Numbered from the stretch's first letter, positions 3,488-62,726 are shown. The stretch: 64,000 nucleotides of DNA from Sulfurimonadaceae bacterium (GCA_036169815.1 JAVHOA010000120.1:1781-65780); one strand, 5' to 3'. The notes: generated from the sequence alone by a model not told the origin. A program made the numbers and translations.

Positions 3488-4807
3488 TTAAGATCGAAAC
3501 GCTTCAATAGCTTTTTTCGCGGCTTCTTTGTGCACAACACAAGGCTTTGGATAATTTTTTAAACTTGCCTCTAGAAGATAGGCTTCATTATGCAAATCTT
3601 TTGCGCTTACATGTAAGAGTTGCGGAAGCCATTTTTTGATGTATATGGCATCTTTATCAAATTTTTTTGCTTGTAAATAGGGATTAAAAACTCTAAAATA
3701 GGGTTGAGGATCCACTCCTGTTCCAGCGCTCCATTGCCATGAAAGTATGTTAGAAGCCGCATCATAATCGAGCAGGTACAAACGAAAAAACTGCTCACCC
3801 CATTGCCAAGGAAGTAAGAGGTCTTTTGTAAAAAAAGAAGCAACAATCATCCGCACGCGGTTGTGCATTTTACCTGTTTGTAGTAGTTCATTGATTCCTG
3901 CATCAACGATCGGCACGCCTGTTTTTGCTTCACAAAAAAGCGCAAATTTAGCTTCATCTTCTACACCATTGAAACTATAAGTAAAGTTTTTTTCTGCAAG
4001 AGAAGGAAAATAGTAGAGTAAAGAGGCATAAAACTCACGAAAAACGAGCTGTCTAAAAAATGGCTCGGTATCGATTCCCTCTTTTTTCCTGTGTACAAGC
4101 CAACGCAAAAGCTGTTTAATACCCAAGGTGCCAAAACGTAGATGCACGCTAAGGGCGGAGGTGTCAGTCGTTGCAATGGTGTCACGATCACTTTGATATT
4201 GCCTTACATGTAAGGCAAATTTATCTAAAAGTGTCTCAAGTCGCTCTACTCCATGTGCTTGATATTGAAAGCCGATATCCTCTAAAGAAAGTGTGTTATA
4301 TGAAAATGGAATCAGGCTATTTTGCGCACTAAACTCACTTTTTGCTAAGTGTGAAGAGGAAAAAATTGTTTTAGATTTCTTGTAAAATGGGGTAAAAACT
4401 CTGTAAGGTGAGCCATCATCTTTTAAAATCTCATCAGGTTGAAAAATGTAGGTTCCATACAGATACTCAAACTCTACAAGGCGTGAGATTTCAAGATCTC
4501 TTTGTCGTGCATAGGCATCATAATCTCCGCATGCCACGATTTTATCAATGGATGTAGTCTTTAAAAGAGAGCTGATAATCTCTGTAGGTTTGCCATAAAA
4601 TAGGGCTAGGTTAAGCCCTTTTGCTTGCAAATCTACTTTGAGTTTACACACTGCTTCATAGATAAAACTTACACGTCTGTCGTCACAAGGAAGATTTTTG
4701 AGGATATTTTCATCAAAGATAAAAATAGGCAGAAGTTCACCCTTACATGTAAGCAACATATTATCTTCTACACGAAGATCACGCCGAAACCAGAGGATTT
4801 TTGTCAT
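3488..4807 (-). CDS. phr: Deoxyribodipyrimidine photolyase (class I CPD photolyase)
   Basis: 439 aa. N-terminal ILWFRRDLRVEDN; C-terminal FAD-binding signature TGxPIVDAGINELxxTGxMHNRVRMIVASF...DYDAASNILSWQWSAGTG. Confidence 0.9.
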   Translation of the reverse strand: MTKILWFRRDLRVEDNMLLTCKGELLPIFIFDENILKNLPCDDRRVSFIYEAVCKLKVDLQAKGLNLALFYGKPTEIISSLLKTTSIDKIVACGDYDAYARQRDLEISRLVEFEYLYGTYIFQPDEILKDDGSPYRVFTPFYKKSKTIFSSSHLAKSEFSAQNSLIPFSYNTLSLEDIGFQYQAHGVERLETLLDKFALHVRQYQSDRDTIATTDTSALSVHLRFGTLGIKQLLRWLVHRKKEGIDTEPFFRQLVFREFYASLLYYFPSLAEKNFTYSFNGVEDEAKFALFCEAKTGVPIVDAGINELLQTGKMHNRVRMIVASFFTKDLLLPWQWGEQFFRLYLLDYDAASNILSWQWSAGTGVDPQPYFRVFNPYLQAKKFDKDAIYIKKWLPQLLHVSAKDLHNEAYLLEASLKNYPKPCVVHKEAAKKAIEAFRS

Positions 4808-5751
4808 TTTGAACCATGCAGGCTTGAGCGCAAAGCCAACTCTTTAGGATAGGGAGCTAAAAATGTTTGCTCTAACAAATAGCTTGTGTTATATTTTTTT
4901 GCATAAAGGTTGATGGTACTCAGGGGAACGATAAGCGGTACAATTGCTTGCATGTACTCCTCGATTTGCGTATGGAGCATCTCTTTTTCCACTTTTAAGA
5001 GCTCTTTTTTAAAAAATCCTGCCATATGTTCAAGCACATTTTTATCTCGTTTGCGTGAGCTTTTTTTTGCGATGGCAGTTTTAAATTTCTCTTCATAAGA
5101 GAGCAGAATTTCATTAAAAGAAAAAGATTCGTGATTACCCACAATTTTACCGAGTTCACGATAGAGCTTTTCATCTTTGGCTTGCAACATAAACTTGTTT
5201 TTTGTATGAAACTCTACAAGTTTTTTCATATTCGGAGCATTTTTTTTGAGATTTTCAAAAGATTTATATGCAAATATTTGCATAATAAAATTTTCTCTTA
5301 ACCAATCATCCACAAGCCTGCCCTCCTCTTCCATGGGGAGATGAGGAAATTGTTTACGACAAAGGGAGACAAAAATTCCATCGCTCTTTCCCTCAGAAAA
5401 TCCATTTGGCAGATAGGTTTTCGAACTTCCAAGCCCGCAACTTGGAGATTTTGACTTAAAAATAATGCCACAAAGATCTTCACTTGCAATCTTCTGGAGT
5501 TCTTGATTTGAAAATCCAAGCAGATGCTCTGTCAAATCTGCTCCATCTTTGTTGGAAATAATATGGTTTTGCTCACCATCTCGCACCATTCGTATGGATG
5601 GACGCGGCGTTCCAAACGCTAGCGCTTCTGGACAAAAAGGGACATATGAACAATAAGCAGAAAGCTGATCTGTGATGAAACGATCTCTTTTATGCCCACC
5701 GTCATAGCGCACTTTTTCACCAAGCAAACATGCCGAGACTGCTAACTTCAT
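4804..5751 (-). CDS. DUF523/DUF1722 (YbgA-like) family protein, co-transcribed with photolyase
   Basis: 315 aa, starting MKLAVSACLLGEKVRYDGGHK (DUF523-type N-terminus). 4-nt overlap with phr. A ybgA-like gene upstream of phr is a known conserved pairing (E. coli ybgA-phr). Confidence 0.7.
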   Translation of the reverse strand: MKLAVSACLLGEKVRYDGGHKRDRFITDQLSAYCSYVPFCPEALAFGTPRPSIRMVRDGEQNHIISNKDGADLTEHLLGFSNQELQKIASEDLCGIIFKSKSPSCGLGSSKTYLPNGFSEGKSDGIFVSLCRKQFPHLPMEEEGRLVDDWLRENFIMQIFAYKSFENLKKNAPNMKKLVEFHTKNKFMLQAKDEKLYRELGKIVGNHESFSFNEILLSYEEKFKTAIAKKSSRKRDKNVLEHMAGFFKKELLKVEKEMLHTQIEEYMQAIVPLIVPLSTINLYAKKYNTSYLLEQTFLAPYPKELALRSSLHGSK

Positions 5752-6019
5752 AATAATCCTTCAAACTTTAATTAAGTAAGTATAGAATATTCAACGATTT
5801 TTTCATACTCTTATTTTGTAGTTTCATAAGTATCATGTAGGCTTTTGAAGTGATATTTAAGGGTACCTCTAAAGTAAGAGACTAAAATAAGTTATACATA
5901 CTGTTGTAAGGATAGATAAAGTATCCTTTTTGAATTTCTATAATTTTATAAAAGGATATTGAAAGGGCACGGTACTCTTTGCAAAGCACCCTGCCCACTT
6001 ATGTAAAATTTCTACAGAA

Positions 6020-6577
6020 CTACTTATTCATAGCTTCTAGAGCGTATTTTTCACCAAGTTCATAAGCTTTTAGATTAGCAGGATGTACTTTTGCGGGTAC
6101 TTTAGAAAGCATTGTATCTATAAGTGTTTGTCTATCCACCGCATTTTGCATTGTGTTTGCAATCGCAAGAGCAACGACAGATTGAGTAATAACATTCCCA
6201 ACCTCTTCTTTTGCGATTGTAATAATTGGAATCTCGAAGATATTCCAAGTTTTTCTATCCTCATCTGATGGGTGAACGAGGTTTGGATCAACTACAATAA
6301 TCCCACCTGGTTTTACTCCATTTTTAAATAAGTTGTAACTTACATGCGCAACTGAAAGCATAAAATCGATTTCACCATCATTTGCATAAGGATAAAAAAT
6401 TTCATTATCATCAAGAGTAATATCAACAACTGTTGGACCACCACGCACTTGCGATGTATATGTGGCAGTTTTTAAACCCTCGCCACCAGCTCTGATTTTT
6501 GCTGCTGCAAAAATTTCTCCAGCAAGAAGAACACCTTGTCCACCAACGCCCGTAAATCTCATTAAGTTTCTAGCCAT
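6020..6577 (-). CDS. oorC: 2-oxoglutarate:acceptor (ferredoxin) oxidoreductase, gamma subunit
   Basis: ORF track 6020..6679. Preferred start is MARNLMRFTGVGGQGVLLAGE (ATG 6577), preceded by GGAGA and 10 nt after the oorB stop. Gamma-subunit fold of the 2-oxoacid:ferredoxin oxidoreductase (OFOR) family. Confidence 0.85.
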   Translation of the reverse strand: MARNLMRFTGVGGQGVLLAGEIFAAAKIRAGGEGLKTATYTSQVRGGPTVVDITLDDNEIFYPYANDGEIDFMLSVAHVSYNLFKNGVKPGGIIVVDPNLVHPSDEDRKTWNIFEIPIITIAKEEVGNVITQSVVALAIANTMQNAVDRQTLIDTMLSKVPAKVHPANLKAYELGEKYALEAMNK

Positions 6578-6587
6578 TGTATTCTCC

Positions 6588-7445: not shown

Positions 7446-7446
7446 C

Positions 7447-8958: not shown

Positions 8959-9258
8959 TTAATTTTCTTTTTTGTTGTTCGAAATTTTTCCAATAGCACA
9001 CGAAACATAACTCTTAGCCTTCAGGCTAGCTGAGTCAATGAAACCGATCTCTTCGTCACAAAGAGGATAGCCTAAGTTCCTTAGAGTTGCTTTGAAATGT
9101 GCTTGTGACGCTTCATCAAGTATATCGACTGTTACTTTTCGAGGCTCGCACGAGAGATCTACATGTATATCTTTAAATCCCTCGGCCTCAAGGGATTTCG
9201 TAATTGTGTTTGCACAACCAGAACATTTAACATAGCAAACCTCAAAAGTTGTCAGCAT
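8959..9258 (-). CDS. Heavy-metal-associated (HMA) domain protein
   Basis: 99 aa. MLTTFEVCYVKCSGCANTITKSLEAEGF... fits the HMA fold with a CxxC metal site. Fills the sucD-oorD gap exactly (start 3 nt after the sucD stop). Confidence 0.6.
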   Translation of the reverse strand: MLTTFEVCYVKCSGCANTITKSLEAEGFKDIHVDLSCEPRKVTVDILDEASQAHFKATLRNLGYPLCDEEIGFIDSASLKAKSYVSCAIGKISNNKKEN

Positions 9259-9260
9259 CT

Positions 9261-11336: not shown

Positions 11337-12728
11337 TTACTCTTTTGGACTTATCATATCTTCTGGCACAACATACTTATCAAACTCTTCAGCGCTTAGT
11401 AAACCAAGAGCCATCGCTTCCTCTTTAAGAGTTGTTCCATTTTTATGAGCAGTTTTTGCGATTTTTGCTGCATTTTCATATCCAATATATGGGTTGAGTG
11501 CAGTAACAAGCATTAAAGAATCATGAAGATAATGATCAATTTTTGACACATTTGCTTCAATACCAATTGCAGCATTGTCATTAAATGAAACAATAGAGTC
11601 CGCAAGCAGTCTTGATGATTGCAAGAAGTTATAGGCAATTACAGGTTTAAATACATTCAGTTCAAAATTTCCTTGACTCGCTGCAAAACCGATTGTTGCA
11701 TCATTTCCCATCACTTGGCATGCTACCATCGTGACAGCTTCACTTTGCGTAGGGTTCACTTTCCCCGGCATGATAGAAGAACCTGGTTCGTTTTCTGGGA
11801 TTGAGATCTCTCCAAGTCCACAACGAGGTCCTGAAGCTAACCATCTTACATCATTTGCGATTTTCATCATGTCAGCAGCCAATGCTTTAAGTGCTCCGTG
11901 ACAATATACAAGTGCATCATGAGAAGTAAGCGCATGAAATTTATTAGGTGCGGTGATAAAATCATGTCCTGTGAGTTCACTGAGTTTTTTTGCAACACGT
12001 TCTCCTAGCTCTGGATGAGCATTGAGGCCTGTCCCAACAGCAGTCCCGCCAAGAGCCAACTCGCGTACAGGCTCAAGAGAATTTTTGACCATTTTTTCAC
12101 ATTTGTTCAGCATCTCTACCCAACCGCTAATCTCTTGACCAAGCGTAAGCGGTGTTGCATCTTGAAGGTGCGTACGTCCGATTTTTACAATATTTTCAAA
12201 TGCTTCACTTTTCGCTTGCAATGTTGCTTTGAGTTTTGCAATCGCTGGAAGTAAACGCTCTTCAACAGAGATAACAGACGCTACATGTAAGGCTGTTGGA
12301 TACGTGTCATTTGAGCTTTGAGATTTATTGACATCATCATTTGGATGAATCAGCTTCTCTACTCTAAAATCGCCACCGAGAATTTCAGTAGCACGATTTG
12401 CCAAGACTTCATTGTTATTCATATTCGATTGCGTACCTGAACCTGTTTGCCAAACAACCAAAGGATAGTTGCTGTCTAGTTTGCCAGCCAGCATATCATC
12501 AGCAGCTTGTGCAATTGCATCTGCTTTTCTTGCATCAAGCTTGCCTAAGTCTTTATTGACAAGTGCTACTGCTTTTTTTAGAAATGAAAATGCACGAGTA
12601 ATCTCATAAGGCATCTTCTCTTCACCAATTTTAAAATTTTCTACAGAACGCTGAGTTTGCGCCGCCCAATATGCATCAATAGGAACTGCGATTGCTCCCA
12701 TTGTGTCTTTTTCAATACGTGTTGCCAT
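11337..12728 (-). CDS. fumC: Class II fumarate hydratase
   Basis: 463 aa. [16 protein letters not shown] signature; [10 protein letters not shown]. Confidence 0.95.
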
Positions 12729-14816: not shown

Positions 14817-17800
14817 ATTTTTATCTCTTCTGGTTATTTTTATATCTATTTTAAATGGTGTAGAGATTAACAATTTACGCTTGCCATCGTTGATAGTCGA
14901 GAAATTATACATAAAATGGGATCAAAAACTTATCATTCGGGCTCAAAAAATTGAAGTTATCTTACCAAAAACAGAAGAAAAAGAGCAAAATTATAGAAAA
15001 AAAGTCAAAGATAGTTTTGATATATTAAAAAATATTTACCAAATCGCTGATCTCTTGCAAGATGTTGATCTAAAAACTGTTCATATTAATGACACACAAC
15101 TCTCATTTCGCTATAAAAGAGGTGAAAAAAGCTTTCTTGTAGTGCGGACGAAAGATCTTCATATTTTAACTGATATTGATGTCACAAAAGAGCAATCAAT
15201 CGTTCATATTAATAAATTTGAGAACAGTGATAAAACTTTTCACCTGCATGGAACAGCAGTTATAGATAATAAAAAAGAAAAACTTTCAAGTCAGCTTGAG
15301 CTCACTCTCCTTAATGATACGAATATGACACTTTTAATCTCTATGGATACACAAAAACTTTTTTATAAATTACAATCGCGCAAAGCTATTGGAAATTTGC
15401 CATCTATCACAAAAATGGCACATCTTCCATCATATCTCAATAGATGGATTTATGATGCAATCAAAATGAAAGATGCTTCCCTGCAACAATTTTATGGATT
15501 TGTGGAGTTTGCAAAACCAGAAGATTTTATGAGACACATTTATGCAGATGCGCATTTAGAGAGTTTGCAATACACTTTTGATACAAGACTTGCTCCTATT
15601 ATAACCTCAAGTACACATCTTATTTTTAGCAATGGAGTGCTCCATATCTATCCAAAAGATGCAAGATTTCATGTACAAGAACTTCCTAAAAGCTACCTTG
15701 ATATCGATCTCAATCCCAATAAATATCTTCTTTGCCTCTATCTTCAAGATTATCTATCGCTCGATCGTGATGTTGTCAATCTATTAAAAACATATAAAGT
15801 AGATATTCCATTTATGCAAACAACTTCTAAAATAGATACGCACTTAAATCTTTTTATCAAGTTAAAAAATTTTAATGTCGATGCCAATGGAAGTTTTGCA
15901 CTCGAACATGGTGCCTTTGTTTATAAAAATATGAATCTCAATGCCTCAAATGCCTTTTTAACACTTAAAGGTTCACAAGTCGATATCAAAAACTTAACAC
16001 TTGTCAATAAAGAGAGTTTTGAAACGAATATTAGCGGTTCATTAAATCCTACAAAACATGAAGGGAGATTGGAAGCTGATATAACGCAGTTTCAAATCGA
16101 TGCCGTTTCACTCTCAAAAAAACAAAAAGTACATCTCATTTACAATGTTTTACCAAAAGAGGATAAAATTTTTGTCTCCCAATCAAGCTTACAGTATAAA
16201 GACACACTTTATGATTTGGCAAGTTTTACGTTTAATTTTGATCTCAACACCTTAATCGCCAAGCTTCCTAAAGTTGAAATTGGCGTAGAAAATAAATTTT
16301 TAGGTTCTCTGTGGGGAGATATCAATCTCAACGATTTCACAGCAGCACTCAATCTAAATATTTTAAAACTTCAAAATAAAAAAGTAAAACTCGATCAAAA
16401 TATGCTTGCCCTCTCACTCAAAGTCAATAAAAAAATAGAGATTAGTAGTAAAGAAAAAAGTGCTTGGCAAGTAGGTGAAAATAAAATTTCTTTAGGTGCA
16501 ACAAAAATTCTTTATGCAAACAATAAGGTTCAAATTGCCAAAACAGACCTAACAGCAGATACATTTAGCTCCACTTTTGTGCTCGATTATGACCTCAATA
16601 AAAGTTTAGGAGAAGTTGTTTTACAAAAAGTAGCGCTACAAAATGAGTTCCTAGCAAAATTTTTCAACAAACAAGAAAACTATGCGCTGAGCGTTGACAA
16701 CACAAAAAAAGATACAGCCATCACCTTTAAAAAATACAATACGACACTTTTGCTCAAAGAAAATAATCTGTGGAGCCTTACATGTAAGGATTTTAGTAAA
16801 ATTTATAAAAATGTTCCCCTCTTTAAAGATTACAATATTACCAATGGAGATATCACGCTTGCATCAACAAATAAAGAGGGTGAGTTCCTTTTCGATGGTT
16901 CGCTGCAATATCCGTATAAATTTCTTGTTAAAAATAATATTCCACTTGATAAATATAGATTTAGCGGAAGTTATAGCGATGAAAAAACAGATATTACCAT
17001 CAATAACGAGTTACATGTAAGGCTCAATAATGGTATAAAAATCCAAGCAAATCATCTCGGTTTTAACATTCCTGCATTTGTAAAATTTAAAAATGAGCAT
17101 ATATTTGCGCAGACAAAAGAGCAAGCATCCATCACAGCGCAAGCCAAAGAGAGTTATCTCTATTTTAGCAGCAACAGAAAGATGTTAGCCGATACTCTCA
17201 ATGTGCAATACTGTGATTCAGAGCTCACAGCACAACTCCAACACGCCAAAGGAAAAGCTGGATTCAATCTCAATAAATATGGAATTTTTTATCTGCATGG
17301 ATCAAATTTTAATGATACATTTATGGAAAAACTCTTTGCAACATCAAGATTTTCAAGTGGAGCACTCTCATTTACTTTTAATGGAGCATTTGAGGAGTTT
17401 TCTGGAATTATAGAGATTCAAAATACAATTTTACAAGAATACAAAGCACTCAATAATGTTTTTGCCTTTGTCAATACCGTTCCATCTCTTGTGACATTTA
17501 GCGTCCCTGATTACTCTCAAAAAGGCTTACATGTAGAGAATATGTATGTTGGATTTACATCTAAAAAAGGTGTGTATGATTTGAGCGATCTCTCTTTGGC
17601 ATCAAAAGAGATTAAGATTTATGGAAAAGGCAAAATGAACTTAAATAGTGACACTTTAGATATGGATCTTAACTTAAAAACAGATTTAGCCTCTAAAGCT
17701 TCCCAAATACCAATCGTTGGATATATCCTATTTGGAAAAGAGAGTATCTCTACCTCCTTGAAAGTACAAGGGAGCATTTATGATCCAAATGTGAGCACAA

Positions 17801-22326: not shown

Positions 22327-22460
22327 AAAAAGGGTTACATGTAAGTAAAAAAGCTTTACATGTAAGAATAAAAAAACTAGATTTATAAGTAAAAAAAGGC
22401 TTACATGTAAGTAAAATAGTCTTTACATGTAAAGAAAAAAGCTTTACATGTAAGCAAAAA
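22327..22460. repeat. Tandem array (period about 22 bp) of five intact palindrome units plus one degenerate unit, between convergent lolA and acnB
   Basis: G/CTT(T)ACATGTAAG units start near 22334, 22354, 22400, 22421 and 22442. At about 22380 there is a degenerate unit, GATTTATAAGTA, which reads like the unit with the central CATG missing. Each unit is flanked by A-runs on the plus strand, which are T-runs for the acnB transcript. Confidence 0.85.
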
Positions 22461-34593: not shown

Positions 34594-34677
34594 GCCTGCG
34601 TGGTGAAATGGTAGACACGGCGGATTCAAAATCCGCTATCGCAAGATGTGGCGGTTCGAGTCCGCCCGCAGGTACCA
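34594..34677 (+). tRNA. tRNA-Leu (anticodon CAA), long variable arm, CCA encoded
   Basis: GCCTGCG...CGCAGGT acceptor stem; anticodon loop TTCAAAA within GGATTCAAAATCC; variable arm GCTATCGCAAGATGTGGC; T-arm GGTTCGAGTCC; 3' ACCA. Confidence 0.9.
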
Positions 34678-35364: not shown

Positions 35365-36034
35365 AGATTATGGGGTCTTTGATGCCAGCTTTTTCAAAGC
35401 CATTGAGTCGCAATCTGCAGCTGTCACACACACCGCACGCTTTGTCCTCATTTTGATAGCAGCTCCATGTGAGTTCGAGTGGCACTTGTAGTTTGATTGC
35501 TTCTTCAACAATTTGGGATTTTTTGAGATGCACAAGTGGCATAAAGATTGTGAGATTTGTTGTATCTTTTGTGCCAAGGTTGATACTTTCTTGCATACTT
35601 TGTATGTAGCGCTCACGACAATCTGGATAGCCACTACTATCCTCTTCAACCACTCCAATGGCAATCGCTTCTGCACCCTCTTTTTCTGCGATTGCAGCTG
35701 CCATACTTAAAAATATGCCATTGCGAAAAGGAACATAAGTCACAGGAACTCCCTCTTCTATGCCGCCTATTGGAACATCGATGCTTGTATCTGTGAGTGC
35801 TGAGGCTCCAAGCTCCTTAAAAAAACCGATATCAAGCGAGTATTTTTGGCTTACATGTAAGGCTTTACAGATATTTTCAAAACACGCCAACTCTTTTTTT
35901 TGTGTGCGCTGGTCATAGTTAAAATGCACCGCAATAATCTCATATCCAAGATTACGCATCATATAGGCGCTCAAAGTTGAGTCCATTCCACCACTCATAA
36001 TACAAACTGCTTTTTTATTTTTCATATTTTTCAT
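35357..36034 (-). CDS. queC: 7-cyano-7-deazaguanine synthase
   Basis: 225 aa. [14 protein letters not shown]-loop; C-terminal zinc cluster [18 protein letters not shown]. Confidence 0.9.
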
Positions 36035-42277: not shown

Positions 42278-42705
42278 ACTGGAAAGTGTTTGCATTTGAT
42301 ACAATCTGCCCAGATTTTATGATCTGGCAAAGATTCTTTTGGAATCTCAAAAAAACCTAAATTTTCAAAAAAACTCTGTTTATATGTTAAAACTAAAACC
42401 TGTTTTAAACCAAGAAAAATGGCTTCACTCAAAGATTTGCTTACAAGTGTCGAACCAATATGTTGCGCTCTGTAGCCATCTTTTACAATCAAAGAGCGAA
42501 TCTCTGCGAGTGATGAGGAGTGTACATGTAAGGCGCAAAAACCAATCAATTTTTCACTATCAAATGCAAGCGTATAGGATCTGATATTTGTAGCAATCTC
42601 ATCATCGCTTCTTGCTAAAATAACGCCGGATTCCACATCTTGACGCACAAGCTCTTGCATAGATTTTATGTTGGAAAGCGACGCTTTTTTATACTCTATC
42701 ATCAA
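42244..42705 (-). CDS. GNAT-family N-acetyltransferase (short ArgA-like form)
   Basis: 153 aa. Acetyl-CoA binding region RSLIVKDGYRAQHIGSTLV; C-terminal KIWADCIKCKHFPVC. Confidence 0.75.
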   Translation of the reverse strand: MMIEYKKASLSNIKSMQELVRQDVESGVILARSDDEIATNIRSYTLAFDSEKLIGFCALHVHSSSLAEIRSLIVKDGYRAQHIGSTLVSKSLSEAIFLGLKQVLVLTYKQSFFENLGFFEIPKESLPDHKIWADCIKCKHFPVCNEIALIKNI

Positions 42706-44318: not shown

Positions 44319-44803
44319 AGACTCAAATATGCTTCTAACTGCTCGTTCTCTTTGACAACAACATCAATCATCTCTCGCACAGCGCCCTCGCCACCCTTAC
44401 ATGTAAGCACAATATCGACCATCTCTTTAATATAACTTGCTCCATCACTTGGAGTGAAACTTTTTCCTACACTTTGAAGCAGTTTATAGTCATTGAGTTC
44501 ATCCCCAATCGCAGCTACCTCTTGCATCGTGATACCGATTTTTTCTATAAGTTGCTCGAGGATGGCTTGCTTGTCTTTGACACCTTGATACAGATGCCCT
44601 ACTTTGAGCTCTTTTGCTCTATGTTCGACGAGCTTGGAACTTCTTCCTGTGATGATAACAACCTCTCCGCCAAGTTTAATCCAGTTTGTGATTGCAAATC
44701 CATCTTTAACATTGAAGTTTTTGCTCTCCTCACCGCTATTGGAGTAGATAATCTTTCCATCTGTAAGACATCCATCTACATCCAGCACTAAAAGCTTAAT
44801 CAT
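44309..44803 (-). CDS. kdsC: 3-deoxy-D-manno-octulosonate 8-phosphate phosphatase
   Basis: 164 aa. HAD motif LVLDVDGCLTDG; ...GDELNDY... Confidence 0.85.
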   Translation of the reverse strand: MIKLLVLDVDGCLTDGKIIYSNSGEESKNFNVKDGFAITNWIKLGGEVVIITGRSSKLVEHRAKELKVGHLYQGVKDKQAILEQLIEKIGITMQEVAAIGDELNDYKLLQSVGKSFTPSDGASYIKEMVDIVLTCKGGEGAVREMIDVVVKENEQLEAYLSLWI

Positions 44804-46153: not shown

Positions 46154-47366
46154 TAATATAGAGTTTATCTCCCGCTTTGACATTCTCATTTTTAATATTG
46201 TTTTTAGATTTTATAAAAGCGACACTCACTTTGTTTGCTTTTGCGATGGATTCTAAAGTTTCACCATCCCTAACCGTGTAGGCACCTTTATCTAAAACAA
46301 TATTCGTTTTTGAAACAACTGGAATTATAATATCTTGTTTTGAAATTTGCTTGTTTTGATTTGCTTTTATGAAATCTTTTGTAATTTTAGGCTGAATTTT
46401 AAATTTTATCCCATGAGAAAGTGTATTTTCCTCTTGTTTTGGCGTAAATACAATAAATTTTTTCTTATCGCTATTTTCACCATCTCCATTATAATTTTCC
46501 TGAAATTCAGCAAGCTTCGTTGATGGAATATAAATATCATATCCCTTGGTATCAGGAGGTGTAAAGTCATAGGTGAGATGCGTATTTAACTTTTTGAGTT
46601 CCTCTTGTGGAAGGTTGAGCATATGGGAAACTTTCGTCAAAGACTCACCGCTTCCAACCTGCACAGTACTTAAGGAAGGAGTATTAAAAGGAGTATTTGC
46701 ACTGCCATCACCAAGTAATCGGCCCTCATCATTTTCAACCATTGCTAAAGAGAGTATTTTGCGGATGTAGCGCCGACTCTCAGCGGGAAGATATTTTTTC
46801 TTTTCATCAAGCAGTACATGTAAGTTGTCAGTTTTTGCTTTTTTGATTGCATTGGCAAGATATCCGCTTCCACAGTTGTAAGCGATTGCCGCAAGATACC
46901 ATTTACCAAACTGATTATGCAAAATAGTTAAATATTTTGCAGCGGCTCTTGAAGATTTGATAAGATCATGGCGTTCATCTACATATTTATCTATGCGAAG
47001 ATGGTAGCGTTTTGCAGTATCAGGCATAAATTGCCAAACGCCTCCAGCGCGACTTTTGGAGCGTGCTTTTGCAGCAAAATTTGATTCTGCGATGGCAACA
47101 AATAAAAATTCAGGCGGAACTTTATACTCGTTTAAAACCTCTTTGACATTTGGGATAAACACCGCAGCATCTCCCATATCTTGAAACAAACGATTTTTTT
47201 TATACTGAGAAAGTTGTGAGGATTTTATATCATTAAGCTGGCTATCTTTTAAAAATGAGGCATCAATATCAAAGCTCTTTAAAAGATCTTTGTCCTTTTG
47301 TAAACCTGCATTTGGATCTCCAAATAAAAGGTATGGAAGTAAAAATAAAAGAAAATATTTAATCAT
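46146..47366 (-). CDS. Membrane-bound lytic murein transglycosylase (MltD-like: SLT domain plus LysM)
   Basis: 406 aa. Signal peptide. SLT catalytic region AIAESNF...GGVWQFMPDTA...YLAAIAYNCG. C-terminal LysM (YTVRDGETLESIAKANKVSV). Confidence 0.8.
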   Translation of the reverse strand: MIKYFLLFLLPYLLFGDPNAGLQKDKDLLKSFDIDASFLKDSQLNDIKSSQLSQYKKNRLFQDMGDAAVFIPNVKEVLNEYKVPPEFLFVAIAESNFAAKARSKSRAGGVWQFMPDTAKRYHLRIDKYVDERHDLIKSSRAAAKYLTILHNQFGKWYLAAIAYNCGSGYLANAIKKAKTDNLHVLLDEKKKYLPAESRRYIRKILSLAMVENDEGRLLGDGSANTPFNTPSLSTVQVGSGESLTKVSHMLNLPQEELKKLNTHLTYDFTPPDTKGYDIYIPSTKLAEFQENYNGDGENSDKKKFIVFTPKQEENTLSHGIKFKIQPKITKDFIKANQNKQISKQDIIIPVVSKTNIVLDKGAYTVRDGETLESIAKANKVSVAFIKSKNNIKNENVKAGDKLYINE

Positions 47367-48404: not shown

Positions 48405-49930
48405 CTATTGGCCTCCAAAAGATCTTTTGCAAATAGTTTGGCTTCATTTGTAATATTGCTTCCACTAATCATACGTGCAATCTCATCGACTCGTTCATCA
48501 AATGCTAAGGCTTTTACAAAACTCTGTGCACCATTTTTATATACTAAAAAGTGCTGATCACCCATGGAAGTGAGTTGGGGTTGGTGCGAAATAACAAAGA
48601 TTTGAAATTTTTTAGAAAGATGGCGCAACACTTTTGCCACACTCATAGACTCCTCACCACTTAAATTCGCATCAATCTCATCAAGCATTAAAATACCGCC
48701 ACTCTCTTGATCAATCTCAGATTTGATTGCCAAAATAGCCAAACGAAGGCGATTAAACTCTCCCGTACTCACTTTATCTAAAGGAGTTTGACTCAAAACA
48801 ATCTCAAGGAAGTCTTGTCCAAAACTGCCAAGTGGTATCTGCTTGAGTTCAATGCTCACCTCTCTTAAGTAGAGTTGTTTGATAATAGCATTGAGATTTT
48901 TTGTAAAATCTTTCAGTGCTTTGAAGCGTAGAGCACTCAATACATTTGCATCCTTACTTATGCTTACATGTAAGCGTTCTTGCTCCTCTTTGAGATCTCC
49001 TTTTGTTATTTCAATATTGTTATAGTGTGCAAGTTCTTGAAGTTTTACCTCTTTATATGCAAGTGCTTCTTCAATGCTTCCATACCTTCTTTTGAGTGAT
49101 GAGAGCGCTTCAATACGGTTTAAAACATCTTCTACATCCACCTCATCGAGATTGTTGATTTTTTGTGTCGCTTCATCGAGGTGCGCACGTAGTTCATTCA
49201 TGGCATCATCAAAAAAACCGCTTTGGATTTCCAGTGTTTCAAGTGCGCTTGCAACAGCATACTCAAACGCAAATATTTTTTGTGCTTCAGCAATTTTTTG
49301 TGAAGATTTCTCTTTTTTTGAGAGCTCTTTTTTGATCTCCAAAAGCGTTTCATCTTCACCAATTTTTGGATTCACATCATCTATCTTTTGTATCTCAAAG
49401 GTAGCGAACTCTTTAAGTTCTACGATTCTTTTTTGCTCATCTTCGATGGCTTTGAGCTGTTTACTTACTTCACCATAACGGATAAAATCTTTTTGAAATC
49501 TCTCTTTGAGTGTTTGAATCTCTTTGTTTTTTATCCTGCTATCTAAAAGCTCTAAAAGGTTTTTATTTTCAAAATCACTATAATCACGCAAGCTCAAATG
49601 GCGGACATAACTGCTGCTTAAAGATTTCATATCTTTTTTAGAGATTGCTTGATTATTGATAAAAAAACGCACTTTTTCTTTTTTAATCTGTCTAAAGACA
49701 TTGATATCTTCATTTTCTATACCAAAGTCATCACCCAAAATATTCCAATTACTTTGGGACTCACACAGCGCCGCACCCCCATCACTTAAACCAAAAGTAG
49801 AAAGGATTGCATCCATCAATACAGATTTTCCGCTTCCGCTAGGTCCCGTAAAAACGATCAGTCCTTTAGTGAGATTCAGTTCTATCTGCTTAAAACTCAA
49901 ATAATCTTTCAAATAAAAACGCTCAATCAC
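48392..49930 (-). CDS. recN: DNA repair protein RecN
   Basis: 512 aa. Walker A GPSGSGKSVLMDAI, long coiled-coil middle region, C-terminal LMLDEIDANLSGE. Confidence 0.9.
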   Translation of the reverse strand: MIERFYLKDYLSFKQIELNLTKGLIVFTGPSGSGKSVLMDAILSTFGLSDGGAALCESQSNWNILGDDFGIENEDINVFRQIKKEKVRFFINNQAISKKDMKSLSSSYVRHLSLRDYSDFENKNLLELLDSRIKNKEIQTLKERFQKDFIRYGEVSKQLKAIEDEQKRIVELKEFATFEIQKIDDVNPKIGEDETLLEIKKELSKKEKSSQKIAEAQKIFAFEYAVASALETLEIQSGFFDDAMNELRAHLDEATQKINNLDEVDVEDVLNRIEALSSLKRRYGSIEEALAYKEVKLQELAHYNNIEITKGDLKEEQERLHVSISKDANVLSALRFKALKDFTKNLNAIIKQLYLREVSIELKQIPLGSFGQDFLEIVLSQTPLDKVSTGEFNRLRLAILAIKSEIDQESGGILMLDEIDANLSGEESMSVAKVLRHLSKKFQIFVISHQPQLTSMGDQHFLVYKNGAQSFVKALAFDERVDEIARMISGSNITNEAKLFAKDLLEANRCVL

Positions 49931-50869: not shown

Positions 50870-52969
50870 TTACTTTTTGAGACTCAAACTCACTTTTGCT
50901 CTTTCTTTATCTATGGCGACTACTTCTATATTTGGTAAGTATTCGCCTACATGTAACACTTCTAGCGGATGTGCAACTCTTTTTTCACTCATTTGAGAGA
51001 TATGAATGAGTCCATCATTTTTGAGGCCAATATCTACAAAGGCCCCAAAATCTGTAATATTTCTTACAATGCCTGAAACAAAACTTCCCTCACTAAGCAT
51101 CGAGAGTTCAGTCAAACCACTTCTAAAAGCGATGGGCAAAAGCTCTTGTCGTGGATCAAATCCTGGTTTTTTTAGCTCAAATAGTATATCTTTGAGTGTT
51201 TCTTTGCCTACATGTAAGCGATTTGCGAGTTCTGCAATATCTGGATTATCTAAATCTTTTGGAGTGATTTTTGCAGCAACTCCATAGCTTTCTGGGTGGA
51301 TTCCTGTGTTTTCCAAAGGATTTTTTGCATCTTTTATGCGGATAAATCCTGCAGCTTGCTCATACGCTTTATGGCCCAAACCCTTTACATGTAAGAGTTG
51401 TGATTTTGTTGTAAAGGCGCCATTTTCTTCTCTGTATGTGATGATGTTTTGAGCCACTTTTTCACCGATGCCCGCAACATGAGCAAGGAGAGATGCGGAT
51501 GCGGAGTTAATATCGACTCCCACTTTATTGACAAGATCCACCGTGACATCATAAAGTTTTTTCTCTAAGAGTTTTTGATCCACATCGTGCTGGTACTGGC
51601 CTATACCTAAAGATTTTGGATCGATTTTAACAAGGGTCGCCATAGGATCGCTCAGTCTTCCTGCGATGGAGATGGCACCACGGATAGTAACATCCAAGTT
51701 TGGATACTCCTGCGAAGCTATTTTTGAAGCACTATACACCGATGCTCCCGCTTCTGAGACAATGGTGTAGCTCAGTTTTTCATCTAACTCGCCATTAAGA
51801 CGCGCAAAAAACTCCTCTGTCTCTCGCGAGGCTGTTCCATTGCCAATGGCGATGGCTTTGATGTTGTATCTTTTTACAAACTCTAAAATTTTTCTTTTTG
51901 AGTTTTCATAATCTTTTTTTGGTTCTGTAGGATAGATGACACCATGATCTAAATAGTTGCCATTTTCATCTACAACAGCGAGTTTACATCCGCTCACAAA
52001 AGCAGGATCAACCCCTAAAATCACCCGTTTACTCACAGGTGGAGTCATAAGCAGTTGCGAGAGATTTTTACCAAAAGTGCTGATGGCTTGCAAGTCTGCT
52101 TTTTCTTTGAGTTGTGCGTGAATCTCTCGCTCAATGGATGGAAGCAAAAGACGTTTAAGTCCATCTTTGTAGGCTTCAAAAAGCCTAACATGTAGGTTTG
52201 ATGCGTTGCGCGGTATCTTATAAGTTTTGATATTTTGCTCTAATCTTTCTTGATCAACACTTATCTTTACATGAAGCTCTTTTTCATGGACTCCACGCAT
52301 CAAACCCAAATAGCGATGCGATGGGATAGTTGCTACTTTTTCGCTTTTATCTACAAAATTTACAAAGACACCTTTTGCATTAAAATTTTTCGCTTTTTTA
52401 ATCTCCAAAATACCTTGACGCGTCATGATATTTCGTACGGCTTCACGCGCTTTGGCATCATCTGCGTAGCGCTCAGCCACAATATCACAAGCACCTCCAA
52501 TCGCCTCTGCAACGCTATAAATAGAGCCTTGAACAAAAGTTTGTGCCACTTTTTCAAACTCTGCCTCATTTATCTTTGCAGCTTGAAGCATTGCTGCGAG
52601 GGGCTCAAGCCCATTTGCTATGGCCACGCTTGCACGAGAGCTTTTTTTCTCTTTAAAAGGACGGTAAATATCTTCTAAAGCTCGCATATTTTGCGCTTCT
52701 TCTATCATTTTTAGGATTTGTGGTGTGAGTGTTGCGCGCTCAGTGATGAGCCGTTTAATCTCCTCTTTGCGCTCTAAAAGTTTTTTTGTACTATTGTACA
52801 CATCTTCAAAAGCTCGAAGTATTGTATCATCGGCTCCGCCTGTGAGCTCTTTTCGATAACGGGCTATAAAAGGAATCGTCGCGCCCTCTTCTAAAAGCTT
52901 TAAAATATTTGAAATAAACTGAGACTGTAAACCTGTTTTTTGCTCTAAATGGTGTATAAGATTTTGCAT
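50870..52969 (-). CDS. tex: Tex-like RNA-binding transcription accessory protein (YqgF, HhH and S1 domains)
   Basis: ORF track extends to 52996. Preferred start is MQNLIHHLEQ (ATG 52969). TIPFIARYRKE motif and a C-terminal S1 domain (GIVRNITDFGAFVDIG...GLIHISQM). Confidence 0.9.
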   Translation of the reverse strand: MQNLIHHLEQKTGLQSQFISNILKLLEEGATIPFIARYRKELTGGADDTILRAFEDVYNSTKKLLERKEEIKRLITERATLTPQILKMIEEAQNMRALEDIYRPFKEKKSSRASVAIANGLEPLAAMLQAAKINEAEFEKVAQTFVQGSIYSVAEAIGGACDIVAERYADDAKAREAVRNIMTRQGILEIKKAKNFNAKGVFVNFVDKSEKVATIPSHRYLGLMRGVHEKELHVKISVDQERLEQNIKTYKIPRNASNLHVRLFEAYKDGLKRLLLPSIEREIHAQLKEKADLQAISTFGKNLSQLLMTPPVSKRVILGVDPAFVSGCKLAVVDENGNYLDHGVIYPTEPKKDYENSKRKILEFVKRYNIKAIAIGNGTASRETEEFFARLNGELDEKLSYTIVSEAGASVYSASKIASQEYPNLDVTIRGAISIAGRLSDPMATLVKIDPKSLGIGQYQHDVDQKLLEKKLYDVTVDLVNKVGVDINSASASLLAHVAGIGEKVAQNIITYREENGAFTTKSQLLHVKGLGHKAYEQAAGFIRIKDAKNPLENTGIHPESYGVAAKITPKDLDNPDIAELANRLHVGKETLKDILFELKKPGFDPRQELLPIAFRSGLTELSMLSEGSFVSGIVRNITDFGAFVDIGLKNDGLIHISQMSEKRVAHPLEVLHVGEYLPNIEVVAIDKERAKVSLSLKK

Positions 52970-55450: not shown

Positions 55451-55497
55451 AAATAGCTTACATGTAGAGCTTTAAAAGCCTTACATGTAAGCTATTT
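55451..55497 (+). terminator. Long hairpin built from two copies of the palindrome motif, downstream of the porin gene
   Basis: AAATAGCTTACATGTA (55451..55466) pairs perfectly with TACATGTAAGCTATTT (55482..55497); the 15-nt spacer can itself partly pair. The T-tract on the plus strand is weak (CTATTTC), so terminator function is uncertain. Confidence 0.5.
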
Positions 55498-56374: not shown

Positions 56375-56778
56375 ATATTTTACCAGCGACTATAAAATCG
56401 ATTCTCTCTTCGCAACAGCTTTCTTGTGTCAGTGTGAAAATTGGCGCAGATGAATTTCATCTTTTTTTAGTCGAAATGCTAGATGAAAAACGTTTTTTAA
56501 ACGCAAATGTCAAAATCACATTTAAAGAAACAGAAGTGATTTTATTGCAAGAAAAAGTAATTCCCTCAAGCGCAAATATGGCAATAGCCCTCATAGAAAA
56601 AATAGAATATGGCACAGTTTTGACGCAAGTTACACTCATGTATCATACAGCGCCTATCACAACACTAGTAGCAACACCACTTTTTAAACGCTTACATGTA
56701 AGCGTAGGTGACACCGTTTCATGGATGGTGCAACCAAGCGAAATTTCCCTTTTATGGAGTGCGGCACATGGAATCTGA
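56371..56778 (+). CDS. TOBE/Mop-type molybdate-binding domain protein
   Basis: 135 aa. NILPATIKSI... and ...RLHVSVGDTVSWMVQPSEISL fit TOBE-domain beta strands. Overlaps the modD stop and the modB start. Confidence 0.65.
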   Translation: MNILPATIKSILSSQQLSCVSVKIGADEFHLFLVEMLDEKRFLNANVKITFKETEVILLQEKVIPSSANMAIALIEKIEYGTVLTQVTLMYHTAPITTLVATPLFKRLHVSVGDTVSWMVQPSEISLLWSAAHGI

Positions 56779-57442: not shown

Positions 57443-58314
57443 TAACTATTAATGTTACAAAAAAACTCGATACCGCAGAAGGAGCCTTCATGGCTCATTT
57501 TGAATTGGCAATACAAGATGGAGAATTTTTAACACTTTTTGGACCCTCGGGAGCGGGAAAAACAACGCTTTTGCGTATGATTGCCGGACTCGAAGTACCG
57601 CAAAGCGGAAAAATAGAAGTCAATAAAGAAGTGTGGTTTGATAGTCAAAAAAAGATAAACCTTCCCCCACAAAAGCGTAATGTCGGTTTTGTTTTTCAAG
57701 ATTATGCTCTCTTTCCTACCATGAGCATCAAAGAAAATCTCCTTTTTGCCGCTGAAAATGAGGAACAAAAAGAAAATGTTGCCGCGCTCATTGAAATGGT
57801 GGAACTCACTTCCCTTTGCAATCGTTTGCCACACACTCTTTCAGGCGGGCAAAAACAGCGTGTCGCACTCGCTCGTGCCTTGGTTCGCCAGCCAAAAGTC
57901 ATTTTACTTGATGAACCGCTTTCTGCGCTTGATCCCCTGATGCGCCAAAAACTGCAAAATGAGTTGGCTTTGATTCATAAAAAGTTTGGCGTGACAACCC
58001 TGCTTGTCAGTCACGATATCGCAGAAACCGTGAAACTCTCTGATCGTTTAGCTTCTGTTGAAGCAGGGCATATACACAAAGTATGCCCGCCAATGGAGTT
58101 CTTTTCTCACCATACGCTCAGTGGAAAACTACAACTCATCGGAGAAGTGTTAAAGATAGAAGAGGATTTTCCCATCACAGTTGTAACACTACTTGTTGGT
58201 TCCTCTATTGTCAAAACAGTCGTTACATGTAAAGAAGCGCAAGCGTTTCAAATCGGTTCGCAAGCCATTATCGCATCAAAAGCTTTTAATCCTATTTTAA
58301 TGCCTGTACGCTGA
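57439..58314 (+). CDS. modC: Molybdate ABC transporter ATP-binding protein
   Basis: 291 aa. Walker A GPSGAGKTT, LSGGQKQRVALARAL, Walker B ILLDEP. Confidence 0.9.
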   Translation: MITINVTKKLDTAEGAFMAHFELAIQDGEFLTLFGPSGAGKTTLLRMIAGLEVPQSGKIEVNKEVWFDSQKKINLPPQKRNVGFVFQDYALFPTMSIKENLLFAAENEEQKENVAALIEMVELTSLCNRLPHTLSGGQKQRVALARALVRQPKVILLDEPLSALDPLMRQKLQNELALIHKKFGVTTLLVSHDIAETVKLSDRLASVEAGHIHKVCPPMEFFSHHTLSGKLQLIGEVLKIEEDFPITVVTLLVGSSIVKTVVTCKEAQAFQIGSQAIIASKAFNPILMPVR

Positions 58315-60153: not shown

Positions 60154-60725
60154 TGAGCAAAAAGCTTTTCTTAATTATCGGAGCTCCAGGCTCTGGTAAA
60201 ACGACAGATGCCCAGATTATTGCAGAGCAAAACAGTGCCATTACCCACTACTCCACTGGCGATATGCTTCGTGCGGAAGTTGCGAGCGGAAGTGCACTTG
60301 GAGTCCAGATAGAAAGTTATATCTCAAAGGGGCTGATTGTCCCAATCCAAATCGCAATTGCAACCATCACAAATGCAATCAAAAATGCGCCAACGAATGC
60401 CATTATCATCGATGGGTATCCACGAAGTATGGAACAATTAAACGCTTTAGATACATACTTACAAAATGGCAGTTCGCTTGAACTCTCGAGTGTCATCGAA
60501 GTACATGTAAGCGAAGAAACTGCGCGAGATAGAGTTTTAGGACGTTTACGCGGAGCAGATGACAATACAGAAGTTTTCAACAATCGTATGCAAGTTTATA
60601 CTCAGCCACTCGCAGAGATTCAAAACTTTTATAAAGAAAAAAATATCTACCATGTTATAAGCGGAGAGGGAACGATAAATGCTATCGTTTTAGAGATGGA
60701 AAATTTCATAAATTCAAAACTCTAG
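60153..60725 (+). CDS. adk: Adenylate kinase, short (LID-less) epsilonproteobacterial type
   Basis: 190 aa. LIIGAPGSGKTT P-loop, [20 protein letters not shown]. aspS-adk synteny as in Campylobacter; 1-nt overlap with the aspS stop. Confidence 0.9.
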   Translation: MSKKLFLIIGAPGSGKTTDAQIIAEQNSAITHYSTGDMLRAEVASGSALGVQIESYISKGLIVPIQIAIATITNAIKNAPTNAIIIDGYPRSMEQLNALDTYLQNGSSLELSSVIEVHVSEETARDRVLGRLRGADDNTEVFNNRMQVYTQPLAEIQNFYKEKNIYHVISGEGTINAIVLEMENFINSKL

Positions 60726-60734
60726 GAGATTCGT

Positions 60735-60886: not shown

Positions 60887-60888
60887 TT

Positions 60889-61539
<651 letters not shown>

Positions 61540-61599
61540 TTAATCCTATCTTTTTTTGTTGTTGCAATTATAATATATTGAGTTTAAAAGAAGCTCGAT

Positions 61600-61869: not shown

Positions 61870-61914
61870 TTTTTATCCTTGTAATTTTAGTGACAAAATC
61901 ATACCAAATAGTTT

Positions 61915-61926
61915 GTTACATGTAAG
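61915..61926. repeat. Single intergenic copy of the palindrome motif (GTTACATGTAAG)
   Basis: Lies in the divergent promoter region between the acidic-protein gene and the cinA-like gene. A further core copy (61986..61993) overlaps the cinA-like ATG 61989. Confidence 0.8.
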
Positions 61927-61988
61927 CCATATAAAACGATATTGCTACTATAATCATTGACTTTTATAAAGCAACAAAGGATTTCTAC

Positions 61989-62726
61989 ATGTACAACTTT
62001 TATGCCGTAATTATTGGGACAGAAATACTCAATGCAAGACGAGAGGATAAACATTTTTGTTTTATTCGCAATCTTTTAAACTCCTATGGGCACACTCTTT
62101 TTTCAAGCTTTATTATTAAAGATGACAAGCAACTCATAAGAGATGTGTATGAGCTTGTCAAAAAAGATGACAAAGCGATCCTTTTTAGTTTTGGAGGTAT
62201 CGGTTCTACGCCCGATGATCTGACTCGCCAAATAGCTGCAGAGGTGTTTACATGTAAGCCTCTAGAAAGAAATAAGAAGTTTGAGAATGATATTATTGAG
62301 CGATTTCAAGAGGAAGCTTATCCTTACCGTATTCAGATGGCTGACCTTCCGCAAAATGCCAATCTTATCAAAAATCCCATCAACAATATGTCCGCTTTTG
62401 AACTTGAACATCGATACTTTTTTGTTCCAGGATTTCCCGAAATGTCACACCCAATGCTCCAAGAGTGTGTAGAAAAATATTTTTCCACTTCGACAAAAAA
62501 AATTAGAAAAACACTCTACGCCTCTACAAGTGAAAATACGCTCATCCCACTTATGGAGGCAATCCCAGCAGATATGGAACTCTCTTCTTTGCCTATTATT
62601 GGAGAAAATGGACCTGAAGTGGAGTTATCTCTCAACTATCATGATGAAGCGATTGTAAGCCGAGAATTTGAAAAATTTATGGAGTTTTTAGATGCAAAAA
62701 ATATTGCGTTTAGACTCATCCATTAA
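61989..62726 (+). CDS. CinA-like / MoCF-biosynthesis (molybdopterin-binding) domain protein
   Basis: 245 aa. AVIIGTEIL...FSFGGIGSTPDDLT motif of the MoaB/MogA/CinA N-terminal domain. No PncC deamidase domain. Confidence 0.7.
   Translation: MYNFYAVIIGTEILNARREDKHFCFIRNLLNSYGHTLFSSFIIKDDKQLIRDVYELVKKDDKAILFSFGGIGSTPDDLTRQIAAEVFTCKPLERNKKFENDIIERFQEEAYPYRIQMADLPQNANLIKNPINNMSAFELEHRYFFVPGFPEMSHPMLQECVEKYFSTSTKKIRKTLYASTSENTLIPLMEAIPADMELSSLPIIGENGPEVELSLNYHDEAIVSREFEKFMEFLDAKNIAFRLIH

Follow-up and report, generated by a model that had tools for sequence, protein, structure and literature searches.

The stretch of DNA analysed here, called the window, is 64 kb long and comes from a Sulfurimonadaceae bacterium (GCA_036169815.1, JAVHOA010000120.1:1781-65780). 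The element under study is a palindromic word with the core TTACATGTAA, copies of which lie in genes such as those for photolyase, FumC, FtsK, RecN and Tex, where it is read as the tripeptide LHV or TCK, and in the non-coding DNA between genes. We regard the palindrome itself and its occurrence in two clades as the main result, and the observation on its reading frames as secondary. The palindrome is almost certainly kept as a double-stranded DNA word, with LHV and TCK as by-products of the frames that proteins tolerate.

Abundance and anatomy of the palindrome

The 8-mer TACATGTA is present 40 times in the window against ~2 expected and is the top-ranking of all 8-mers there, with a density of about one copy per 1.6 kb (~625 per Mb). 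The 10-mer TTACATGTAA occurs 26 times against 0.16 expected and the 12-mer CTTACATGTAAG 13 times against 0.00, none of 100 dinucleotide-preserving shuffles containing a copy. Measured against base composition, the observed/expected ratio is ~19 for the 8-mer and ~130 for the 10-mer, and the over-representation of the word amounts to one to three orders of magnitude. Maximal-order Markov expectations are uninformative because the sub-words are dominated by the motif itself.

A symmetrised profile of the copies shows that the inner TACATGTA is near-invariant and that the next position outward is T/A in 76%. The window clade favours C/G outside this T/A (56%), then S further out; the second clade, represented by loci L010 and L011, favours TTTACATGTAAA. 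One-base variants are confined to the outermost positions of the 10-mer, and flanks past ~14 bp are unconserved among the copies. Across 129 kb of the window clade the perfect 8-mer was observed 76 times against 4.3 expected, and the motif signal is all-or-none.

Most ACATGT hexamers in the window (40 of 47) sit in TACATGTA. Outside that context the hexamer is scarce, with 7 copies against ~22 expected from base composition over the whole window, and its numbers are low in motif-free relatives too (540 kb of Sulfuricurvum-like loci contain 48). This scarcity may reflect an order-wide avoidance of the hexamer, for example through restriction pressure.

Coding copies, reading frames and codons

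Each ACATGT-centred site was placed on the gene model and its reading frame determined, and the host genes were identified with Pfam and NCBIfam. The sites within genes are as follows:

3606..3617: photolyase gene, 12-mer, LHV frame (LLHVSA)
4203..4214: photolyase gene, 12-mer, LHV frame (ALHVRQ)
4742..4753: photolyase gene, 12-mer, TCK frame (LLTCKG), replacing an S-L-G conserved in motif-free orthologues
9158..9169: small HMA-like open reading frame (ORF), 8-mer core copy TCTACATGTATA, xHV frame (IHV)
12280..12291: fumC, LHV frame (ALHVAS)
16777..16788: YhdP/AsmA-like gene, 12-mer, TCK frame (SLTCKD)
17010..17021: YhdP/AsmA-like gene, LHV frame (ELHVRL)
17526..17537: YhdP/AsmA-like gene, LHV frame (GLHVEN)
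27039..27050: ftsK, LHV frame (YLHVSR)
30713..30724: rfbB, TCK frame (PFTCKPK)
31681..31692: rfbD, 12-mer, TCK frame (LALTCKAK)
32226..32237: rfbC, 12-mer, LHV frame (GLHVSV)
33947..33958: galE, 8-mer core copy, xHV frame (DVHVSD)
34112..34123: galE, LHV frame (LLHVMQ)
35327..35338: YgjP-like gene, LHV frame (GLHVEL)
35850..35861: queC, 12-mer, LHV frame (ALHVSQ)
37155..37166: GMC oxidoreductase gene, 12-mer, TCK frame (DLTCKH); the L005 orthologue has DKACES
39683..39694: TerC/DUF475 gene, LHV frame (TLHVAI)
42521..42532: GNAT gene, LHV frame (ALHVHS)
44396..44407: KdsC-like HAD hydrolase gene, 12-mer, TCK frame (VLTCKG)
46813..46824: SLT-LysM transglycosylase gene, LHV frame (NLHVLL)
48963..48974: recN, 12-mer, LHV frame (RLHVSI)
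50946..50957: tex, LHV frame (VLHVGE), window-specific, replacing a conserved L-S-[LIV]-N
51207..51218: tex, LHV frame (RLHVGK), common to L001-L004
51384..51395: tex, LHV frame (LLHVKG), common to L001-L004, replacing a conserved Lys
52185..52196: tex, 7-of-8 variant, TACATGTT on the coding strand (NLHVRL)
56691..56702: ORF 56371-56778, 12-mer, LHV frame (RLHVSV)
58222..58233: modC-like ABC ATPase gene, TCK frame (VVTCKE); orthologues have ISCM or ASCA
60500..60511: adenylate-kinase-like gene, 8-mer core copy, xHV frame (EVHVSE)
61984..61995: start of the CinA-like ORF, 8-mer core copy TCTACATGTACA, the central ATG being the first in-frame start codon (61989)
62247..62258: CinA-like (MoCF_biosynth) gene, TCK frame (VFTCKP)

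An earlier reading of this DNA, made by a model from the sequence only, had listed the peptides written by the motif and their hosts, and every peptide it listed was recovered at its site in our frame table. Its description of the hosts as unrelated housekeeping proteins is borne out by the Pfam and NCBIfam matches, except that the ORF at 56371-56778, which it called Mop, has no family match. Its list of sites lacked three coding copies of the 8-mer core (9158, 33947 and 60500), and the Tex peptide NLHVRL on its list is written by a 7-of-8 variant (52185).

Of the 29 coding copies of TACATGTA, the LHV frame holds 21 and the TCK frame 8; the third has none. The third frame reads TAC-ATG-TAA and contains a stop, and the full 10-mer therefore cannot occupy it within an ORF. 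Thus the statement of the sequence-only reading that only the stop-free frames are used is correct as a description of the 29 copies, but for the 10-mer it is a tautology, true by construction, and carries no evidence. For the bare 8-mer the third frame TAC-ATG-TAY is permitted yet absent, as would be expected if the real unit were 10 bp or longer. Only at the start of the CinA-like ORF does a copy use the third frame, and there the real start is uncertain, as another ATG follows 15 bp downstream.

The results show that the tripeptide LHV occurs 20 times in the proteins of the window against 2.7 expected from amino-acid composition, and that 17 of these 20 are written TTA-CAT-GTA, a string that should make up 4% when the codon usages are multiplied; the remaining three each differ from the word by a single base. 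For TCK the count is 9 against 0.8 expected, with 7 written ACA-TGT-AAG even though AAG makes up only 13% of Lys codons. These two are the most over-represented tripeptides without Trp in the window, and the motif codon string writes 24 of their 29 occurrences against about 4-5% expected. Shuffling synonymous codons within genes, a procedure that retains the already imprinted protein sequences, yielded 3.6 +/- 1.8 copies (maximum 10) as opposed to the 29 observed. The check on codon choice that the sequence-only reading had proposed came out in its favour: synonymous alternatives encode LHV and TCK far less often than the motif codons do. The word accounts for ~5% of the His codons and ~4% of the Cys codons in the window, and this matters when conserved His or Cys residues in these proteins are interpreted.

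Orthologue replacements and retention of sites

Tex sequences from 20 relatives were aligned, and orthologues of photolyase, ModC and the GMC oxidoreductase were also compared. Relatives were examined as loci (L-numbered), not as whole genomes. In Tex, LLKVKG is replaced by LLHVKG at a position that is Lys in 12 of 14 motif-free sequences, and LEVLS[LIV]NQ (also in the form LEVLSLNQ) by LEVLHVGE at a position that is Ser in all 14; ELSVKI has become ELHVKI, and in another lineage FKSK or FTSK has become FTCK. In photolyase, LLSLGGE is replaced by LLTCKGE, the Ser being present in 26 of 27 motif-free sequences, and both LHV sites lie in more variable stretches that already carried L..V. In ModC and the GMC oxidoreductase the Cys common to the few available orthologues stays and its neighbours have changed to T and K, which suggests that sites nucleate on partial matches.

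Column 255 of the Tex alignment presents a parallel Ser to His change at one codon (the ~52240 region of the window, 787 in L010 and 2266 in L011): L010 and L011 carry the full word TTACATGTAA there, the window carries CTTCATGTAA, one base short, and L001-L004 keep Ser. Elsewhere in Tex, the codons AGT-TTA-AAT of L001 correspond to CAT-GTA-GGC in the window. All compared coding sites align gaplessly with their orthologues, indicating that the copies arose by substitution and not by insertion. The LHV and TCK residues are thus not conserved in motif-free orthologues, as the sequence-only reading had asked to have checked, and are lineage-specific replacements. The word is thus strong enough to displace residues that are conserved in motif-free relatives.

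L001, L003 and L004 are syntenic with the window at 40-63 kb, and codon alignments were made for this region, with the following results:

L001: nucleotide identity 83%; third-position identity at identical residues 67%; sites kept 10/11; background 8-mers identical 25%
L003: nucleotide identity 77%; third-position identity at identical residues 59%; sites kept 5/8; background 8-mers identical 14.5%
L004: nucleotide identity 77%; third-position identity at identical residues 59%; sites kept 6/10; background 8-mers identical 15.5%

Binomial probabilities for this retention are ~8e-6 (L001), 2e-3 (L003) and 2e-3 (L004), the sites being non-independent across genomes. Gains and losses of sites between the aligned genomes are also seen, each through one- or two-base changes. 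Retention above background indicates that either selection or a directional process actively maintains the word, whose sites turn over slowly.

Non-coding copies and hairpins

Eleven copies lie in 2.8 kb of non-coding DNA, a density of 3.97/kb against 0.47/kb in genes, or 8-fold higher. They are mostly paired or arrayed at 21-23 bp spacing, roughly two turns of the helix, with A runs alongside:

3075..3108: pair of CTTACATGTAAA copies at 22-bp spacing, immediately 3' of the gene for RNase P RNA; minus-strand hairpin followed by a U run (free energy, dG, -14.1 kcal/mol, z -4.0)
22334..22454: five-copy array with spacings of 21, 45, 22 and 21 bp and an A run before each copy, where lolA (+) and acnB (-) converge at their 3' ends; folds on either strand (z -5.2 and -5.7)
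55457..55491: pair 23 bp apart after an OprD-like porin gene; hairpin with a 17-bp stem (dG -26.3 kcal/mol, z -7.9), conserved in L001
61915..61926: lone intergenic copy in a divergent promoter region

Because the word is self-complementary, two copies can pair into a stem of 11-17 bp. The three arrays of the window, together with pairs in L001 and L011 (in the latter between convergent genes), are located immediately beyond the 3' ends of genes and fold well. Such pairs at gene ends look like intrinsic terminators built from the word, as far as predicted folding can tell. The RNase P RNA beside the first pair is of class A (3113-3437, minus strand, 236 bits), with the two-copy hairpin and U run adjoining it at 3060-3110.

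Distribution across lineages

The window derives from a groundwater metagenome and belongs to Campylobacterales, in a clade with L001-L004 that is sister to Sulfurimonas. The best genome match of its Tex is a metagenome-assembled genome (MAG) labelled 'uncultured Campylobacterales' (83% identical), followed by Sulfurimonadaceae and Sulfurimonas MAGs (69-79%); a look-up of the exact Tex protein gave no recorded match. Among palindromic 8-mers, TACATGTA ranks first in L001-L004 and L010 and shares first place in L011, and the motif density in these six loci is 0.4-1.0 per kb. A neighbour-joining tree of Tex groups L010 and L011 with Sulfuricurvum-like genomes. Elsewhere the 8-mer is rare or absent: 1 copy in 69 kb of Sulfurimonas loci, none in 540 kb of Sulfuricurvum-like loci, none in the Sulfurovum and Arcobacter loci examined, and 2 in 568 kb of Firmicutes loci. 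Two motif-rich clades are thus split by motif-free ones, which implies either two gains, for example by transfer of a recognising gene, or several losses.

A scan of metagenomes for motif pairs returned at least 120 contigs, and among those listed about 44 hold at least 0.5 copies per kb over at least 4 kb. The motif-dense matches listed include pieces of contigs 0.2-0.9 Mb long. Where motif-dense contigs have genes in common with the window these are 52-63% identical, consistent with further members of the second clade. A scan of viral contigs for motif pairs gave 18 contigs with 2-5 local copies each, of varied GC content, none of them hyperabundant, and it has no bearing on the genome of the window.

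Some of the viral contigs, from IMG/VR phages (L085, L089, L091, L095 and others; GC 0.44-0.52), hold local clusters of 3-5 TACATGTA spaced 10-13 bp apart, which are probably operator sites. Some short, unrelated contigs from metagenomes contain long arrays of TTACATGTAA in non-coding DNA (L196 278-580, L107 747-1027, L138 5207-5420 and L152 594-675). Those of L196 and L107 have a strict 21-bp period with 9-11 copies each, and that of L138 a 51-bp unit with two copies. The arrays look like iterons or centromere-like binding arrays, a phenomenon separate from the hyperabundance, and suggest that proteins reading the palindrome cooperatively exist elsewhere.

Comparison with known systems

The uptake signal sequences (USS) of Pasteurellaceae and the DNA uptake sequences (DUS) of Neisseriaceae are, like the present motif, words of 9-12 bp at ~0.6-0.9 copies per kb that are common to related species. 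They also share its tolerated coding frames, inflated tripeptides, enrichment in non-coding DNA, origin by point mutation and pairing into terminator-type hairpins, the last being predicted here. The link between USS/DUS and terminators was reportedly drawn by Kingsford and colleagues in 2007. USS and DUS are asymmetric, whereas our word is a perfect palindrome, and they inflate tripeptides ~2-fold, compared to 7-fold for LHV and 11-fold for TCK. The present word differs further in sitting at several well-conserved residues, in lacking a halo of one-off variants, in its phylum (Campylobacterota) and in being known here from sequence alone. The tripeptides raised by USS and DUS sit at poorly conserved positions, and the analogy with them that the sequence-only reading had drawn is apt (Findlay and Redfield, PMC2817400). 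That reading overlooked that palindromy makes HIP1 (highly iterated palindrome 1) of cyanobacteria at least as close a comparator.

HIP1 (GCGATCGC) is likewise a palindromic octamer with lineage-specific extension to 10-12 bp, present in hundreds of copies per Mb that are mostly intragenic. Its density of 300-2700 per Mb (PMC4390886) encloses the ~625 per Mb found here. As in our word, it contains nested shorter palindromes of the size recognised by methyltransferases (PMC4390886), and its sites are conserved from one genome to another (PMC5861425). HIP1 raises transformation, an effect that depends on methylation, and co-varies with DNA-uptake genes (bioRxiv 10.1101/2024.09.10.611283; 10.64898/2026.06.24.733823). 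Three properties of the HIP class, a palindromic octamer at roughly 300 or more per Mb, an observed/expected ratio well above 10 and sites conserved above background, are found here; for a fourth, the co-occurrence of orphan methyltransferases that recognise parts of the palindrome, a regular-expression screen of 502 kb gave no candidate. HIP1 itself was ruled out, as the word differs from GCGATCGC and the phylum is not cyanobacteria. Our word is unrelated to it in sequence, AT-rich and present in two clades of one order, whereas HIP1 is nearly phylum-wide, and the pairing of copies into terminator-type structures is prominent in the present word.

Within the same phylum, Campylobacter jejuni imports only DNA carrying the methylated palindrome RA(m6)ATTY, in a methylation-dependent system that involves CtsM (PMC10046745). 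There too a palindromic word discriminates incoming DNA, which for the present word is a proposal; RAATTY differs in being a degenerate 6-mer for which no imprint on the proteome has been described. No CtsM-like gene was found here, a result that does not extend to a genome-wide search, as none was made. Chi and KOPS (FtsK-orienting polar sequences) are also over-represented short elements, but they are asymmetric and strand-skewed, in contrast to our symmetric word. REP/BIME elements (repetitive extragenic palindromes and bacterial interspersed mosaic elements) and MITEs (miniature inverted-repeat transposable elements) are longer, only intergenic and spread by insertion, whereas the present word is mostly intragenic and made by substitution. 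A repeat of the REP/MITE type was rejected, given the gapless alignments and the flanks unconserved past ~14 bp.

In the literature, TACATGTA and TTACATGTAA appear only as incidental primer or eukaryotic matches, with nothing on bacterial genome structure, and a full-text search for uptake sequences in Campylobacterota gave nothing relevant. As far as we have searched, the palindrome is apparently undescribed, and it belongs with the hyperabundant short words of the USS/DUS and HIP class and not in a separate category.

Interpretation

The central claim of the sequence-only reading, that the DNA word and not a peptide is maintained, is upheld by the fixed codons, the synonymous shuffles, the orthologues, the retention of sites and the 8-fold density in non-coding DNA. 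Selection on the peptides, with LHV and (L)TCK as motifs that many proteins recruited for a function, metal-binding or protease sites for example, would agree with their rank as the top over-represented non-Trp tripeptides of the window, but there are two unrelated peptides and one DNA word. It is ruled out by the single codon string in 24 of 29 cases, the non-coding density and the absence of the residues from motif-free orthologues, and we give it practically no credence. The copies could also be what a tiny mobile or insertion element leaves behind, or an RNA-level processing or cleavage signal, in line with the near-identical 22-bp tandem units between genes and the RNA hairpins formed by pairs. 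The gapless coding alignments and the lack of target duplications and of longer shared flanks rule out an origin by insertion. As for RNA, most copies are single and form no stable hairpin alone, and the palindrome is equal in genes of both orientations, hence no strand-specific RNA signal. This pair of explanations is very improbable, and peptide selection, mobile-element origin and RNA-level function are all essentially excluded.

By analogy with known systems, we tentatively favour a reading in which the word may tag self DNA for recombination or natural transformation and might be recognised in its methylated form through an ACATGT or CATG core; we consider this a reasonable possibility, somewhat short of probable. 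We favour it because of the methylated-palindrome import of C. jejuni and the ties of HIP1 to methylation-dependent transformation and DNA-uptake genes. The perfect dyad symmetry would point to recognition by a symmetric, dimeric protein, fragments bearing the word would be preferentially taken up or recombined, and the word would spread by molecular drive until coding costs halt it. A drive limited in this way would lead the LHV frame, with its common codons, to outnumber the TCK frame, with its rare Cys, and the unconstrained terminator stems to fill with copies. In its fullest form, the proposal would be an undescribed palindrome-reading self-DNA system for transformation in groundwater Campylobacterales, with a probably methylated core, a system that two clades would have acquired independently or through horizontal transfer and that would drive parallel replacements at conserved sites in housekeeping proteins; leaving the HIP1 debate aside, no palindromic uptake sequence would precede it. 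This fuller version seems to us possible and, taken as a whole, doubtful.

A number of observations weigh against the tag reading. A simple balance of mutation and drive predicts a halo of near matches, and in the 129 kb of the window clade one-base variants of the 8-mer show no enrichment (53 observed, 94 expected), their observed/expected ratio being 0.56 in the window clade and 0.54 in motif-free relatives. No competence gene, methyltransferase or candidate for a sequence-specific receptor, the part that ComP plays in Neisseria, was found with Pfam and NCBIfam among the genes of the window, and a crude regular-expression search of motif-rich loci (502 kb) for methyltransferase motifs matched only a ketoacyl synthase. 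The proposal presupposes that these organisms are transformable, and established uptake sequences are all asymmetric, unlike the present palindrome. The association of 59 motif pairs with T runs across metagenome loci is weak (22% against a 12% background, in a crude test). Finally, site retention and intergenic enrichment are equally expected of a protein-binding site with a chromosomal role.

Such a site might be bound or methylated by an abundant chromosomal protein (nucleoid-associated, chromosome-organising or SeqA-like) or by an orphan epigenetic methyltransferase, with purifying selection acting on each copy for the sake of chromosome structure or the control of replication. A nucleoid reading has also been proposed for HIP1, and Xu et al. 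read the conservation of its sites as selection on HIP1 (PMC5861425). The perfect dyad suits a dimer, the sites are conserved between genomes, and the all-or-none inner 8 bases without a halo fit selection on a binding site better than a balance of drift and drive. Moreover, the intergenic copies lie 21-23 bp apart, on the same helix face and flanked by A tracts, and the 21-bp-period arrays of the 10-mer in unrelated contigs make cooperative readers of the word plausible. On the other hand, no candidate protein was found in the window, nor a DNA-binding candidate among its small unannotated ORFs, an intragenic site every ~1.6 kb would be a costly way to organise a chromosome, and the motif-free sisters Sulfurimonas and Sulfuricurvum manage without the word. 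We judge this explanation unlikely, while still giving it real weight.

A neutral alternative is biased repair, of the methyltransferase-linked very-short-patch (VSP) type or another form of mismatch correction, that perfects near-matches into the word. Near-matches are indeed not enriched, sites arise through point substitution, and gaining or losing a single enzyme would make the distribution patchy. The transition neighbours TATATGTA/TACATATA are also rarer in the motif clade (observed/expected 0.20, compared to 0.57 in motif-free relatives), although this depletion is a matter of 3 observed against ~8 expected. Known VSP-type systems, however, act in contexts of 4-6 bp with modest skews and not with a 100-1000-fold excess of a 10-12-mer, and several substitutions per site at conserved codons, as in AGT-TTA-AAT against CAT-GTA-GGC in Tex, argue for a stronger directional force. 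To our knowledge, Campylobacterota are also without MutS1/MutL-type mismatch repair, which we count against this alternative. We hold it to be improbable.

Significance

Short words of such abundance offer natural experiments of a rare kind, where a force at the DNA level visibly overrides selection at the protein level. Just two classes have been studied well, and what the palindromic HIP1 does has been disputed for thirty years. An independent palindromic system in another phylum, unrelated in sequence, makes it possible to test whether HIP and USS are the same phenomenon, and does so in Campylobacterota, where methylated palindromes are already known to gate DNA uptake. The two motif clades and their motif-free sisters provide a clean phylogenetic contrast for locating the responsible gene or genes. 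In practice, the word serves as a sharp marker of these groundwater lineages for taxonomy and binning, and it would be an obvious element to include in DNA meant to transform them.

Other features of the window

Two adjacent, overlapping tyrosine recombinase/integrase genes lie at 312-2925 on the minus strand (Phage_integrase; XerC/D-like far below the equivalog cut-offs), in the part of the window with the lowest GC (0.33). There are no motif copies in 1-3074 against ~2 expected, a difference that is not significant. The integrase end may be the edge of an integrated element beside the RNase P RNA gene.

At 27571-29979 (minus strand) an 802-aa protein is encoded whose only match is Flagellin_N at its N-terminus and which is unusually long for a flagellin; its 2.4-kb gene has no motif copy. 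Two genes of the adenylate kinase family are adjacent to each other: 60153-60725 (+), which is short, has no ADK_lid match and carries the motif, and 60889-61536 (-), which has ADK_lid. A single tRNA gene lies at 34594-34674 (+), between galE and the YgjP-like gene.

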